Assembly (NCBI GenBank): GCA_044370475.1
Contig: JBILVK010000003.1
Coordinates: forward strand, 12,452 to 76,451
Direction of reading: 5' to 3'
Origin: Bacteroidia bacterium
Lineage (GTDB): Bacteria; Bacteroidota; Bacteroidia; UKL13-3
Length of the DNA stretch: 64,000 bases
The notes under the pieces are model-generated. The model did no database searches. It was not told the DNA's origin and saw nothing but the letters and a program-made list of their open reading frames with translations. Within the stretch, counting starts at the first letter, position 1; each line of letters starts with the position of its first letter. The translations under genes and the position numbers were made by a program. Positions 13,250 through 18,190 of this stretch are shown here, one piece after another.

Positions 13250-14215
13250 AATTTAATACTTTATCTATTTTATTCTAATCCCAAAGGGATAACTTGTATT
13301 AAATCCCGAAGGGATAACACAATCATAATCCCGTAGGGATGACACAACTATAATCCCGTAGGGATAACACCATCATAATCCCAGAGGGATGGCCACATAT
13401 TTAATCCCAGAGGGATGGCATATATATAATTAACTAGATTGCCTAGACAATCATAATCCCGAAGGGATAACACAATCATAATCCCAGAGGGATAACACCA
13501 CCATAATCCCGGAGGGATAACAAAACTATAATCCCGAAGGGATAACACAACTATAATCCCGGAGGATGACATAAACATAATCCCGGAGGGATGGCACGTA
13601 TATAATCCCCAAGGGATAACACAAACATAATCCCAGAGGGATGATATGTATATAACACCCGATGGATAAAACGAATATAACCCTGTAGGGGTGGCATATT
13701 AATAATGCCTTAGAGAATACATTGTCTTGTCCCCTCTATGGTTATATTTATGCCACCCCTCTGGGGTTATAACTAGTTGTTATATTCTCTGAGCTAGATA
13801 CATAGCACCCCTCCGGGGTTATAATTTGTTTATATATATCACCGCAGGGCTCACACAATCATAACCCCAGAGGGGTGGCACTGTCTTGCCCCTTCTATGG
13901 TTATATTTATGCCACCCCTCTGGGGTTATAATTTGTTGGTATATATATTCGAACTAGATATATGCCACCCCTCCGGGGTTATAATTTGTTGGTATATCCA
14001 TCTAACTAGATACATGACACCCCTCCGGGGTTATGGTTTTAGTGATGCATTGGAATTTATAATCATTTCAGCCATAACATTTGTCCCAAGAATGACGTCA
14101 CGATTTTACCCCAAAGGGGTAAAATAATTATAATCCCGGAGGGATGACATATATATAATTCACTAGATTGCCTATAAAATCATAACCCCAGAGGGGTGAC
14201 ATATATATATACCCC
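13250..14215. repeat. Array of about 15 units with 25-bp period (ATAATCCCNNAGGGATRRCAC..., short ATCCC-NNN-GGGAT hairpin), then about 5 units of ~62 bp carrying the ACCCC-TCT-GGGGT hairpin, then a ~160-bp unique-like segment that recurs at 17912-18076.
   Basis: Direct reading. The conserved portion is about 20 bp with only about 5 bp variable per unit. Confidence 0.85.
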
Positions 14216-17200
14216 CTAATCCTTTTTGATATAGATTTTCTTCATCACTTTCACATCATCACCAAAGGTGAAATCCATAAAATATATCCCTTCACTGAAT
14301 GCAGACAAGTCAACATCCATCTCAGTATTTCCTATTTCAAATTTCTGACTAAGCACCACTTTTCCAAAAACATCAAATGCCTTTATCTCTTTCAAATCAT
14401 TACCCTTGTAACTCATGGTAAACCTACCATTGTTAGGATTGGGATATAAATGAATATTTCTATCACCCAAATTATCGTCAATCCCATTGACCTTATTAAT
14501 GGTTATATCCTTATAAACCGTATCACCTTTACATCCATTATTCGCAAGTTCCACCAATTTAATTTGGTCAACACCCACTGTGGTCCATTTAATTTGAATG
14601 CTATTAGAAGTACTGTTTCCCAAACCGTTATTAAAATACCAACTATACGTAGAACCATTACGCGCAGGAACTTGATAAACCACTGTACTAAAATAATCAA
14701 TTACAGAATCTCCAATGATTGGTTTGGTAACAGGATTGTTTACTATATAAACCGTATTGGCAAAAGAATCCATGCAATTACCGGCAATAGAACCATACAA
14801 CTTAATTGGATAGCTATTTTCTACGCTAGCCGGAAAACTAATCACCAAACTTGCACTGGTTGAAGTATCACCATTGCCATATTTCCACAATCTATTGGTA
14901 TTACCAACTGTTGTATCGGTAAAGATAAACTGGTTACCATTTAAACATTGAATCTGTTTATTGATGGTAAAACCCACCTTTAATTTAGGAAGAACATTTA
15001 TAAAAATAAAATTGGAAGTATCCAAAGCAGTTCCAGAATAAACAAGCCTACGATACCAAACAGAACCATTAAGTATTGGAGGAGCATAATTTTGGTTTGT
15101 ATTTAAACCAACTGCAGCTGTATAAGGCCCTGTAGCAGCTGCTGTAGCCTGTATCCACAAATAAGTAAAAATACCATTGCCATTGGTAGGAACCGACCCT
15201 GCCAATGAAATTGGACTTGAACCGGCACATATCGTTTGGTCTGAACCAATAGTATTGTTACCAATATTTGGATTGGATGTTTGCGTAGAACTTTCGGCAA
15301 TTGCAAAATCACTGAATCCTGTTAGGCCACTTCTTGAAACATAAAAGGAATCATTCTTCCCAACTGGCGCAACATGCACACCTGGGATAGTCCAGGGTGA
15401 TGTTGAATTAACTCTTTTAAGCAAGGCCAATTTTTGGTACTGACTCACACCAGTAACATTGTTACCAAAAGCCTTAACAGTATAGGTGCCGCCATTTAGG
15501 CCATTGCCACTGCTAATTTTCCAATAGCCGTCGTCAATGGTTTTAAAAATTGAATCTGTGCCTTGTATCAAAGGTAAGCCACTGTTTCCTGGAAGCGCAC
15601 TCACATAGCTTCCACTTAATGTACCTCCTAAAGTTGGTGCATTGGTGTATTGAACTTGTATCGTTTTTAATTTACTGTTTGAACCAACTGGAAATAGAAA
15701 AACGCCGTTGCCTGCTCCTATCCAAAGGCTCATTTTGCCCCGGATACGTCCGGTGCCAGTTTGCACTACTACCGCTGGATTGCTTGAGTTACCTATGGTT
15801 AATGAATCGGTTGTTGCTATATCTAAAACACCCTGACCAACTGTTAACGACCTACTAATTAATCGGCTGCCAGGAAGTGTTATGGGTGCTGTATTGTTTA
15901 AAGTTACATTGAAGGGCACAAGGGTGTTCGACCATAAATAACTACTTGGTGTGGTTGCAACAGTATTGGCGAACATCAACGTTGAATTAGGACTTGAATA
16001 AACAACACTACCCGCTCCGCTAAATGCACCACTGATATAATTTACTGTGCTTCCTGTTCCAACAACCAAGTTACTATCCAAAACAAAACCAGCAGCATTG
16101 TTAAATACAAAAGTAATGCTATCATCAACATTGGAACGCAAACGCAAGGTTTGAGCGGTATTGCCATTGAATACAATTTGCGGATACAAAGAGCCACTGG
16201 TATTTTTTACCAAACCACCATATTGAAAAAAGTTACCGCCTACAAATAATTGCCCAACTTTTGGATGCGCTCCAATAAAATTTAAGGTCCCACCATTTTG
16301 CAAATAATTACCTTTAACATATAGTCGCGAACCTAAATCGTTGGCATTATTAGAATAATTGCGAATCTGCAAGCCACCTCCGTTTAAGGTTAAGTTGCCT
16401 TCAATGGTGGCAGTCCTATTGCTATCAGGATGGTTAAATTCAACATAACTAGAACCAGTATTGTTGATGGTTACGTTTCCTTTTATTAAAACAGGCACAA
16501 GTGAATTTGTATAATTCGACCTAGCAATAAAATGCAGCGGTCTACTATTTCCATTGGTATTCACCACTAAATTAGAAATACTATCAGGCAAGGTAATAAG
16601 CGCTGTATCCGACCCTGGATGTCCGTTAATAACAACTTGCGAACCCGGCAGAAAAATTCCTTTTAAACTATGCTCTGTTGCATTTGCTGGGAAGTTTAAG
16701 ATCACCCGCCCACTTGGTTGAACTTGTAAAATTGAATCTCTAAAGTCGGCATTTCCTCTACCTCCAGTATAAATAAAATCCCCATTCAAAACTACTTTTG
16801 AACGCAAACTACTTGTTCGGTGAAAGTAAATTTTGTTTGGATAATTTGTTAAATTTATCTGATCAGAAAGTATTTCAAAAGTCCCATTTATTGTAACCAG
16901 ACATTTTTGAAAATGCACAGTTAAAGAATTTTGATATGGTTCAAAAGCACCTTTTTTTGCTGTAATACTATTGACTGTAAACTTACCATTAATAATTGCT
17001 TCACTAGCATTGGATTGGTTCCCAACATCAAAAAAAGCATAAAAACCTGGTATCCATAAATTCCCATTTCCGTAAACATTTAACTCACAATTAGTATCTA
17101 CCTGTAATGAAATTCCACCAACCCCATTTATAGCAAAACAACTTGTGTAGCTATTAGTATTTGATTTACAATGAAGAGTTACTTTCCTGCCATTTGTAAT

Positions 17201-17461
17201 TCTAAGTGTCCCCATTTGAAAAAAGTAATAGTTTGGATTAGAAACATAAATTGCATTTGCAACAATTGTATCTCCACCCAATCCAGAGGTAATAATAATG
17301 GTATCTGTAACAGTAGAAATATTTCTAGAAGGGCTAAAATTTGATGGTGTATAAAAGTTCTCATTATTTGCCCCAATCCAAGTATAAACTGCTGCGTTTA
17401 CCTTTGGTTGAAAAATGAAAAAGATCGCTAAAATGGCAAAGGCTTTAAAAAAAATTTTCAT
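14216..17461 (-). CDS. Secreted adhesin-like repeat protein with a T9SS type A (Por) C-terminal sorting domain.
   Basis: Track ORF is 14216..17500. The signal-peptide start MKIFFKAFAILAIFFIFQPKVNA lies at 17461. The C-terminus ...NIHLYPNPNNGRFTMSYKGNDLKEIKAFDVFGKVVLSQKF...GIYFMDFTF matches the T9SS CTD. Confidence 0.75.
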   Translation of the reverse strand: MKIFFKAFAILAIFFIFQPKVNAAVYTWIGANNENFYTPSNFSPSRNISTVTDTIIITSGLGGDTIVANAIYVSNPNYYFFQMGTLRITNGRKVTLHCKSNTNSYTSCFAINGVGGISLQVDTNCELNVYGNGNLWIPGFYAFFDVGNQSNASEAIINGKFTVNSITAKKGAFEPYQNSLTVHFQKCLVTINGTFEILSDQINLTNYPNKIYFHRTSSLRSKVVLNGDFIYTGGRGNADFRDSILQVQPSGRVILNFPANATEHSLKGIFLPGSQVVINGHPGSDTALITLPDSISNLVVNTNGNSRPLHFIARSNYTNSLVPVLIKGNVTINNTGSSYVEFNHPDSNRTATIEGNLTLNGGGLQIRNYSNNANDLGSRLYVKGNYLQNGGTLNFIGAHPKVGQLFVGGNFFQYGGLVKNTSGSLYPQIVFNGNTAQTLRLRSNVDDSITFVFNNAAGFVLDSNLVVGTGSTVNYISGAFSGAGSVVYSSPNSTLMFANTVATTPSSYLWSNTLVPFNVTLNNTAPITLPGSRLISRSLTVGQGVLDIATTDSLTIGNSSNPAVVVQTGTGRIRGKMSLWIGAGNGVFLFPVGSNSKLKTIQVQYTNAPTLGGTLSGSYVSALPGNSGLPLIQGTDSIFKTIDDGYWKISSGNGLNGGTYTVKAFGNNVTGVSQYQKLALLKRVNSTSPWTIPGVHVAPVGKNDSFYVSRSGLTGFSDFAIAESSTQTSNPNIGNNTIGSDQTICAGSSPISLAGSVPTNGNGIFTYLWIQATAAATGPYTAAVGLNTNQNYAPPILNGSVWYRRLVYSGTALDTSNFIFINVLPKLKVGFTINKQIQCLNGNQFIFTDTTVGNTNRLWKYGNGDTSTSASLVISFPASVENSYPIKLYGSIAGNCMDSFANTVYIVNNPVTKPIIGDSVIDYFSTVVYQVPARNGSTYSWYFNNGLGNSTSNSIQIKWTTVGVDQIKLVELANNGCKGDTVYKDITINKVNGIDDNLGDRNIHLYPNPNNGRFTMSYKGNDLKEIKAFDVFGKVVLSQKFEIGNTEMDVDLSAFSEGIYFMDFTFGDDVKVMKKIYIKKD

Positions 17462-17558: not shown

Positions 17559-17626
17559 ATAAATAAATAAATAAATAAATAAATAAATAAATAAATAAAT
17601 AAATAAATAAATAAATAAATAAAATT
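17559..17626. repeat. (AAAT)n tetranucleotide microsatellite, about 16 units, about 100 bp upstream of the adhesin start codon.
   Basis: Perfect aaat repeats read directly from the sequence. Confidence 0.95.
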
Positions 17627-17739
17627 CTCAGTAAAATCAGGCAGTTTCAGCCTCTATAAAAAACAAACCAACGCCAAATATTTCCTCATAAAACTGAACA
17701 CATTTTGCCATCATGTTCAGTTTTTCAATAAAAATTGAA

Positions 17740-18190
17740 CATGATTATTTGAATTATATAATCCCTTCACCCGGCTAAAGAAATGTCACCTCTCTGGTAG
17801 TATATATATTCCACCCCTCTGGGGTTATAATTTGTTGTTATATTCTTCGAACTAGATATATGACACCCCTCTGGGGTTATAGTTTTTTGTTATACTCTTC
17901 GAACTAGATACATGACACCCCTCTGGGGTTATGGTTTTAGTGATGCATTGGTATTTATATTTATCTCAGCCAAAACATTTGTCACAAGTATGACGTCACG
18001 ATTATACCCCAAAGGGGTAAAATCGTGATAATCCCGGAGGGATGGCATATATATCAATCACTAGATTGCCTAAACAATAATAATCCCGGAGGGATGACAC
18101 ATATTTAATCCCGGAGGGATGGCATATATATATATCACCGGAGGGTGACACATATATATTCAGTTCAGACCTCCAAAGAATAGCAATTAG
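17740..18190. repeat. Second hairpin-repeat block (ACCCC-TCT-GGGGT units and ATCCCGGAGGGAT units). It includes a ~160-bp segment about 85-90% identical to 14018-14176 and in the same orientation.
   Basis: Direct reading and comparison with the 13900-14200 region. Confidence 0.85.

Follow-up and report, generated by a model that had tools for sequence, protein, structure and literature searches.

Direct repeats around an accessory T9SS cargo gene as putative copies of a palindromic, REP-like hairpin module in an uncultured freshwater Bacteroidota

The 64-kb window analyzed here (64,000 nucleotides from a Bacteroidia bacterium of the UKL13-3 lineage; GenBank assembly GCA_044370475.1, contig JBILVK010000003.1, positions 12,452 to 76,451) contains a minus-strand gene for a cargo protein of the type IX secretion system (T9SS) that is bracketed by two similar direct repeats. 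We hold with moderate confidence that these repeats are paralogs, each a copy of one composite palindromic module whose building blocks are short hairpin units of a lineage-restricted family resembling repetitive extragenic palindromic (REP) sequences, and that they bracket an accessory T9SS gene. The locus is best described as a hairpin-repeat cluster of the REP or bacterial interspersed mosaic element (BIME) type, akin to the BrickBuilt elements of Porphyromonas gingivalis, with a lineage-specific duplication of one module, an architecture that is instructive rather than surprising.

Alignment of positions 13894-14209 with 17791-18107 (BLAST and pairwise alignment) yielded 318 columns at 87.4% identity, with 37 mismatches and 3 gap positions (E = 2e-111). 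A repeat search of the window recovered an ungapped pair of 267 nt at 87% identity (13948-14214 versus 17846-18112), and profile searches set the bounds of the two copies at 13894-14211 (copy A) and 17792-18109 (copy B). A preliminary description of this DNA had proposed same-orientation flanks of about 85-90% identity, which the alignment bears out, and the sequence motifs that it quoted are all present in the copies; its repeat coordinates (13900-14176 and 17800-18076) lie inside the true repeat, although they are about 2 nt out of register and stop about 40 nt short on the right. Its statement that the repeats enclose nothing but a T9SS type A cargo gene and its promoter agrees with the gene content, as the minus-strand gene at 14216-17461 and its 330-nt upstream region are all that lies between copies A and B. 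The homology of the flanks also reaches beyond short hairpins to the linkers and an 89-nt core, all of which can be aligned. The objection which that description had raised against itself, namely that only short hairpin units might be shared, therefore does not apply. Two properties had gone unnoticed: the repeat is one module amid a field of 25-nt hairpin units, and each copy is itself a long imperfect palindrome. The repeats, their cores and the gene between them are as follows (F, forward; R, reverse).

13894-14211, plus strand: left module (copy A), with R units at 13915, 13968 and 14020 (52-nt spacing), the core, and F units at 14134 and 14186
17791-18109, plus strand: right module (copy B), with R units at 17814, 17866 and 17918, the core, and F units at 18032 and 18084
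14037-14125, plus strand: core of copy A, GTGATGCATTGG...ATGACGTCACGATT...ACCCCAAAGGGGTAAAAT, with a hairpin of 10-bp stem
17935-18023, plus strand: core of copy B, with a hairpin of 14-bp stem (one mismatch)
14216-17461, minus strand: enclosed gene, encoding a 1081-aa, all-beta protein with a signal peptide and a T9SS type-A C-terminal sorting domain

Each module is laid out as three 52-nt units with the hairpin CACCCCTCYGGGGTTAT, the 89-nt core, and two oppositely oriented hairpins ATAATCCCGGAGGGATGRCA, and copy A ends only 4 nt from the stop codon of the enclosed gene. The inverted arms of copy A (13955-14034 and 14130-14209) are 80 nt long and 75% complementary, which amounts to terminal inverted repeats of the sort found in MITEs (miniature inverted-repeat transposable elements). 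The whole module was predicted to fold into one long hairpin, at -141 kcal/mol in copy A (z = -11.8) and with a z-score of -7.4 in copy B. No target-site duplication or sharp module end could be defined at either copy, the edges grading into degenerate hairpin units.

The intergenic regions on both sides of the cargo gene consist almost wholly of the 25-nt unit. Oriented alike, the units share the consensus ATAA[T/C]CCC-RNA-GGG[A/G]TGRCA, with a stem of 5 bp and a loop of 3 nt, and the unit is thus a short imperfect palindromic stem-loop within the 20-40 bp range of REP/BIME elements. When the units of the window, a sister species and a Bacteroidales metagenome-assembled genome (MAG) were pooled, the outer stem pair was T-A in 33 cases, C-G in 15 and mismatched in 1. 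The window holds 29 intact NCCCnnnGGGN units of this family, all within 13279-14186 and 17814-18109, and the 20-mer ATAATCCCGGAGGGATGACA, searched with up to 3 mismatches, gave 18 matches against 0.01 expected, confined to the same two regions. Three arrangements of the unit were seen: a 25-nt head-to-tail minisatellite, opposite-orientation units at 52-nt spacing, and inverted doublets. The clustering is mosaic in the manner of REP/BIME elements: there are modules of the form R-R-R-core-F-F as well as F-R doublets, and the 52-nt linkers recur in each of the two copies. Around the two modules, the field of units comprises the following elements.

13279-13656, plus strand: about 15 tandem units of 25 nt (13 of them intact, 2 degenerate) that form a minisatellite in F orientation, consensus AATCCCGGAGGGATAACACAATCAT
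13675-13837, plus strand: partial additional module (left part) found by repeat search, with an F unit, a degenerate R unit and two R units
13860-13932, plus strand: REPIN-like F-R doublet on the left edge of copy A, its 20-nt arms perfectly complementary
18105-18160, plus strand: two further F units past the right module (18109, and a degenerate one at 18134), by the promoter region of the TonB_C-domain gene

Tandem Repeats Finder described the minisatellite as 13.6 copies of a 25-nt period with 75% matches, and positions 18028-18158 as 5.1 copies of the same period. Positions 2-106 of the module profile matched the partial module at 13734-13837 in nhmmer (E = 5e-23), and the doublet at 13860-13932 has a predicted fold energy of -44.2 kcal/mol (z = -8.2). 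An array of the CRISPR (clustered regularly interspaced short palindromic repeats) type was ruled out, there being no spacers and a period equal to the unit length. A 74-76-aa 'hypothetical protein' has been called on the minus strand inside the minisatellite (13348-13578; P0128, on 13 contigs). This open reading frame (ORF) is a translation artefact of the 25-nt repeat, with periodic IPPGL, SLRDY and YPSGI motifs; its 76-aa form had no counterpart elsewhere among 15 billion predicted proteins, a HMMER search over 1.84 billion representatives returned itself and two unrelated repeat ORFs, and a word-indexed search returned itself only.

The case for a duplication comes from related species. 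In a sister species from activated sludge (L049), whose proteins are 98% (Lactamase_B-fold neighbor), 71% (PKD-domain protein) and 78% (cargo protein) identical to those of the window, the cargo gene also lies beside the PKD gene and the hairpin family is likewise found on both of its sides. The L049 cargo upstream region is orthologous to the right region of the window (81% over about 500 nt), and the orthologous stretch holds an (AAAT)n tract, palindromic sites, reverse units and the core's first half, after which comes a longer 25-nt array; the second half of the core is missing there. On the downstream side of its cargo gene, L049 has forward units only, with neither reverse units nor core, and in a third species (L054, cargo protein 77% identical) forward units stand directly after the stop codon. 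A three-way alignment placed modules A and B of the window closer to each other than either was to L049. Because the left half of the right module is orthologous in L049, we conclude from these alignments that the right module is probably the ancestral one and that the left one arose by duplication in the lineage of the window; it is possible that the left module was instead lost in L049. The L049 hairpin array between the cargo and PKD genes also contains an IS3-family insertion sequence (IS) with an rve integrase and a 143-aa ORF (4466-5826), and this insertion shows that the arrays are insertion targets. The terminal repeat of the element, TGTCTTGTCC..., resembles the degenerate units at 13721 and 13884 of the window over 10-13 nt, a match judged too short to interpret.

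The cargo gene itself is accessory. In five related species the site reads PKD-TonB-Mur (L011 and L023) or PKD-Mur (L012, L016 and L021), the cargo gene being missing in 5/5, and because these species are without it between PKD and TonB/Mur we regard it as an accessory insertion. Neither hairpin units nor module traces were found in 37 syntenic loci of relatives (about 0.6 Mb).

Among known systems, REP sequences offer the closest match in form. Surveys of these sequences report stems of 5-13 bp, sub-families whose stem changes compensate each other, tandem clusters that also carry adjoining DNA, dimers of inverted units, and a preferred location at the 3' ends of genes (PMC3733652). The locus studied here is similar in its 21-25-nt unit with a 5-bp stem and 3-nt loop, its compensating T-A versus C-G stem changes, its head-to-tail, head-to-head and tail-to-tail arrangements, its tandem clusters that take in flanking DNA, its strictly intergenic position starting right after a stop codon, its inverted doublets that make long hairpins, and the IS in the L049 array. 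It differs from the REP super-families in having no GTAG or CGTC tag, the unpaired end being TG(T/C/A)C or TGTT. The CGTC families have stems of 8-9 bp and loops of 4-5 nt, and TGTC variants and A-T first stem pairs occur among them (PMC3733652), whereas stem (5 bp) and loop (3 nt) are shorter here; since neither the tags nor the CGTC stem and loop sizes are matched, we did not file the units in the GTAG or CGTC super-family. Further differences are the restriction to one locus in about 77 kb, the lack of a REP-associated tyrosine transposase (RAYT) among the scanned window proteins, and the unusual regularity of the 25-nt minisatellite of about 15 units. In the work of Bertels and Rainey, REPINs are reportedly REP doublets, inverted units that are separated by a short spacer and fold together into a long hairpin. 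The doublet at 13860-13932, with its perfect 20-nt arms, is of this shape, but no RAYT and no evidence of dispersal were found, and the doublets here are embedded in larger modules.

BrickBuilt is the nearest precedent in the Bacteroidota. This MITE of P. gingivalis is modular and intergenic, has a spacer-less 23-nt minisatellite and predicted long stem-loops, and often lies beside T9SS genes; it is present in 19 dispersed copies per genome and has small terminal inverted repeats (PMC4596501). Both elements belong to Bacteroidota and combine a minisatellite (23 nt there, 25 nt here) with non-repeat 'leader/tail' parts and predicted long stem-loops, and both share a strain-variable short-repeat copy number, a length of up to about 1 kb, a position beside T9SS genes (Por secretion system genes with the C-terminal domain) and the lack of an Rfam match. 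In contrast to BrickBuilt, there are two clusters around one gene here, the sequence is unrelated, and the unit is itself a hairpin, in both orientations. A comparison with genes bracketed by MITEs or ISs is also apt, as two same-orientation palindromic copies of about 318 nt surround an accessory gene missing from relatives at the site; however, no target-site duplication could be defined, no cognate transposase or further copy was found, and the left copy is missing in L049. As to the multiple loci expected of a MITE, the two modules found both lie at this locus, and the collections searched for more are without this species. REP/BIME-like repeats are well studied in Proteobacteria and barely described in Bacteroidota; the locus provides a well-resolved example, in which comparative data place one module duplication in a single lineage and show length change between strains.

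As to how the bracket arose, unequal or ectopic recombination between same-orientation hairpin arrays may have produced the left module from the right one; by one route, the gene segment would have been duplicated in tandem and one of the gene copies then lost. The hairpin clusters are probably passive DNA that is prone to recombination and insertion. Where transcribed, they could serve as stem-loop barriers (3'-end protection, weak termination, insulation) between the cargo gene, the downstream PKD gene and the divergent TonB-Mur operon, and they would mark the edges of a gene gained in the lineage, not a present-day excision or amplification switch.

Several observations weigh against this interpretation. 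We read about 77 kb of the genome for units (the window plus about 2 kb on its left and about 10 kb on its right), and they are confined to the two intergenic regions beside the cargo gene; at least 7 other T9SS genes lie in the same stretch, and those nearby are without units. Because every unit in these 77 kb adjoins one gene, the term 'REP-like' reflects form, not distribution, and the association of arrays and gene, consistent across three species, could have a more specific meaning than passive repeats would. The core pattern TGACGTCACGATTNNACCCCNNNGGGGT gave 0 matches in 185,579 species-representative genomes (GTDB), a collection evidently without this species. The duplication route is one that we infer from arrangement only. 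Single units fold weakly, at -5 to -7 kcal/mol and no better than shuffled sequence. Terminator-like matches in the region did number 15, compared with 3.9 ± 1.9 in shuffles, and all 15 are hairpin units with T-rich tails; the T tracts are weak, however, and a terminator role of the units is uncertain.

Searches of wider collections gave the following picture. No units were found in plasmid or phage collections, and no module beyond the two copies at the locus was found in 951 kb of collected DNA or in plasmids and phages. A search of a Joint Genome Institute (JGI) metagenome subset with the core pattern also gave 0 matches, and this result is uninformative, the subset being without the JGI samples known to carry the locus. 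A pattern of two hairpin units had 0 viral matches and 1 metagenome match, which led to the Bacteroidales MAG (GCA_028718285.1, 48% GC). Its unit, AATCCCG(A/T)AGGGATG(A/T)CA (instances AATCCCGAAGGGATGACAT and AATCCCGTAGGGATGTCAG), is nearly identical to that of the window and is dispersed over 3 intergenic sites within 21 kb, singly or as dimers, next to the 3' ends of genes that include recX and fumC; the dimers are tandem, at 25 or 55 nt (contig L048, 1326-1375 and 4000-4014; contig L064, 8734-8803 and 11430-11475). In this MAG, and so in at least one further member of the Bacteroidota, the unit behaves like a classical REP, which suggests that a REP-like family may be common to distant Bacteroidota. 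No RAYT (Y1/HUH transposase) was present among the 17 window proteins scanned with Pfam.

The preliminary description had read the direct repeats as an on/off or copy-number switch, in which RecA-type crossover between them would delete the gene, leaving one repeat, or amplify it in tandem and so vary a surface protein. We consider this unlikely. The geometry does fit, with two same-orientation repeats of about 318 nt that enclose only the gene and its promoter; a module-gene-module order is the remnant expected of a past duplication between arrays with loss of one gene copy; and the arrays differ in length between strains. The left junction (array, module and stop codon) was covered by 8 same-species assemblies, 7 with DNA and 1 known from gene spacing only, and the right junction (promoter and module) by 11, all of them consensus assemblies and blind to rare variants. 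Every junction-crossing assembly was collinear with the window at 99.3-100% identity and had the cargo gene. None of the 8 left-junction or 11 right-junction assemblies showed the gene absence with a single-repeat scar that the description had suggested looking for in a comparison of strains, nor any deletion, duplication or tandem-copy allele or the corresponding junctions, and these population assemblies thus give no evidence of an active excision or amplification switch. The copies have diverged by 12.6%, their longest shared identical run is 27 nt, and frequent exchange would have homogenized them. An identity of 27 nt is near the minimum for RecA pairing. Because they are 12.6% diverged, not homogenized, and have at most 27 identical bases in a row, the repeats are poor recombination substrates. 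Across strains the copies are identical except for one loop single-nucleotide polymorphism (SNP), a GGA to AGA change at the 14020 unit of the left module in one strain (L056, GCA_964544835.1), which makes the left module match the right one. Array length, by contrast, changes between strains: the minisatellite of this same strain (L056 4042-4470) is 50 nt longer, by 2 extra units, than in the window and six JGI assemblies. If excision, amplification or tract-dependent expression were real, the locus would offer a testable model of surface-protein variation in freshwater Bacteroidota, perhaps under phage or grazer pressure.

A different proposal is that a trans-acting enzyme, for instance an HUH/Y1 transposase working on same-strand hairpins or a transposase working on the inverted repeats of the modules, recognizes the arrays or modules as ends, and that the 4.9-kb segment entered between PKD and TonB in one piece, as a mobilizable cassette. 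It draws on the absence of the segment from the site in 5 related species, on F-orientation arrays at both outer ends in two species, on the restriction of the units to this spot in about 77 kb, on the MITE-like 80-nt inverted arms of each module, and on the occurrence of cargo homologues in unrelated contexts in other genera. We nevertheless regard it as improbable, as no recombinase or transposase lies within about 15 kb (Pfam scan of window proteins), target-site duplications and sharp ends could not be defined, the more distant cargo homologues are without hairpins, no second locus with module or core turned up in the searched collections, and the missing left module in L049 means that the modules are not conserved ends. 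A more specific form, in which the same-orientation hairpin arrays, with their purine-N-A triloop on one strand, are the ends of a gene-sized cassette and the 4.9-kb segment, running from array and module through the cargo gene with its putatively phase-variable promoter to the second module and array, was moved or captured as a unit by a hairpin-recognizing enzyme, seems to us quite doubtful. Were the cassette reading true, array-bounded cassettes would be a way to exchange T9SS surface-protein genes between freshwater Bacteroidota. An integron cassette was rejected: the module is about 318 nt (attC sites, 57-141 bp), the gene measures 3.2 kb, just one 'cassette' is present, and an integrase is lacking within about 15 kb; the attC core-site consensus was not formally scanned. 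A structured non-coding RNA, made from the module or core and duplicated on both sides of the gene, could account for the very strong predicted structure and for a core hairpin that is kept in both copies with different stem extensions. We think it very unlikely, given that the core is conserved no better than the rest (about 89% between copies, versus 87%), that half of it is missing in L049, that no promoter was identified, and that inverted repeat units alone account for the structure. A permissive search of 13000-18400 brought no Rfam family over threshold, only weak matches to miRNA-precursor models, among them those at the 13860-13932 doublet, which mirror nothing beyond the hairpin shape. 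It would be more surprising still if the hairpin arms, as in the invertons of Bacteroides, flanked an invertible core of about 89 nt that flips a promoter toward either the cargo gene or TonB-Mur. A short core between inverted arms of about 80 nt, and the location of copy B in a divergent promoter region, would suit such an element, but all module instances in contigs of the same species (19/19) run collinear with the window and have no inverted core, no Bacteroidetes-type promoter motif (TAnnTTTG) was clear on either strand of the core or in upstream regions as read by eye without a formal scan, no recombinase is nearby, and copy A lies 3' of the gene and 900 nt from the next one.

The cargo protein has both marks of a T9SS type-A cargo, namely a signal peptide (MKIFFKAFAILAIFFIFQPKVNA) and a C-terminal sorting domain matched by Por_Secre_tail (PF18962, E = 3e-13, 50 bits against a cut-off of 27) and by TIGR04183 (34 bits against a cut-off of 23). 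The rest of the protein had no match in Pfam, NCBIfam or PDB. An AlphaFold model from the five known homologues was all-beta and of poor confidence (predicted local distance difference test score, 54), and a Foldseek search with this low-confidence model against PDB returned nothing at E <= 0.001, so the label of adhesin given in the preliminary description has no support from the fold search. The family is rare, with 5 full-length homologues among 5.8 billion proteins; those at 55% and 51% identity lie in unrelated gene contexts in other genera, without hairpins. Several same-species contigs end inside the gene, two of them near 15.5 kb (L003 and L009, 15522-15547) and one at 16980 (L004), and a two-base difference at 16978-16979 distinguishes strains; together these hint at strain-level heterogeneity.

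Upstream of the cargo gene lie two features of interest.

17462-17790, minus strand: upstream regulatory region of the cargo gene, 81% orthologous in the sister species L049
17557-17620: promoter-region tract of (AAAT)16, 96-160 nt upstream of the cargo start codon

Apart from the (AAAT)n tract, the window has no long simple-sequence repeat. Among same-species assemblies, 8 carry 16 copies of the motif and 3 carry 17, and L049 has 13; such a tract also occurs at a contig end in L054, and several contigs stop in or beside it. For phase or level variation, this polymorphic tract is a more conventional candidate than the repeats on either side of the gene. In Neisseria meningitidis, the nadA promoter undergoes phase variation through a (TAAA)n tract upstream of the core promoter (PMC2791445). 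The likeness concerns the promoter tract only and comprises the same tetranucleotide motif, a surface-protein gene, palindromic operator-like sites and a copy number that varies between otherwise identical genomes. The organism is unrelated, however, no repressor was identified here, only two length alleles (16 and 17) were seen, and the tract is known here from sequence alone. Between the tract and the right module are an operator-like palindrome, CTGAACA...TGTTCAG, at 17694-17720, and a hairpin with a 16-bp stem, ATCATGTTCAGTTTTTCAATAAAAATTGAACATGAT, at 17710-17745, both kept in L049. A MarR-like HTH_27 gene is located at 24656-25285 of the window. An accessory T9SS gene in a plastic locus, together with the repeats and a polymorphic tetranucleotide tract, could drive surface variation in abundant uncultured lake bacteria.

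The neighboring genes, assigned by Pfam for the first two, are as follows.

8225-13231, minus strand: PKD gene, the downstream neighbor, encoding a T9SS cargo that carries 8 PKD domains plus a CHU_C sorting domain
18218-18661, plus strand: TonB_C-domain gene, the divergent neighbor
18661-20007, plus strand: Mur ligase gene, after the TonB_C gene

According to the gene calls in L055 and L056, the PKD gene starts at 13231 (GTG, 1668 aa) or 13198 (1657 aa), and its promoter-proximal segment at about 13199-13265, TAGGCACAA..TTCTAATTG.TAGCAATTTAATA, is kept in L012, L016 and L049. Proteins of the window were found exactly in many lake metagenomes and in NCBI assembly GCA_964544835.1, in line with an uncultured freshwater Bacteroidota, and the nearest species representatives show 81-86% identity in the adjoining Mur ligase. 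The stretch from the Lactamase_B-fold gene to the Mur ligase (5713-20007 in the window, compared with L011-L024 and L049) is a plasticity zone, in which TonB_C genes number from none to several, the PKD gene is variably present, DUF4919 is relocated, and the cargo gene occurs in three species only. A further strain-variable spot lies about 3 kb to the right of the window end, adjoining a Peptidase_M43/PKD T9SS gene, where one strain carries a Fic-domain gene (L067, 13179-14937) and the NCBI strain a phage-type integrase (L069, 13255-14232).

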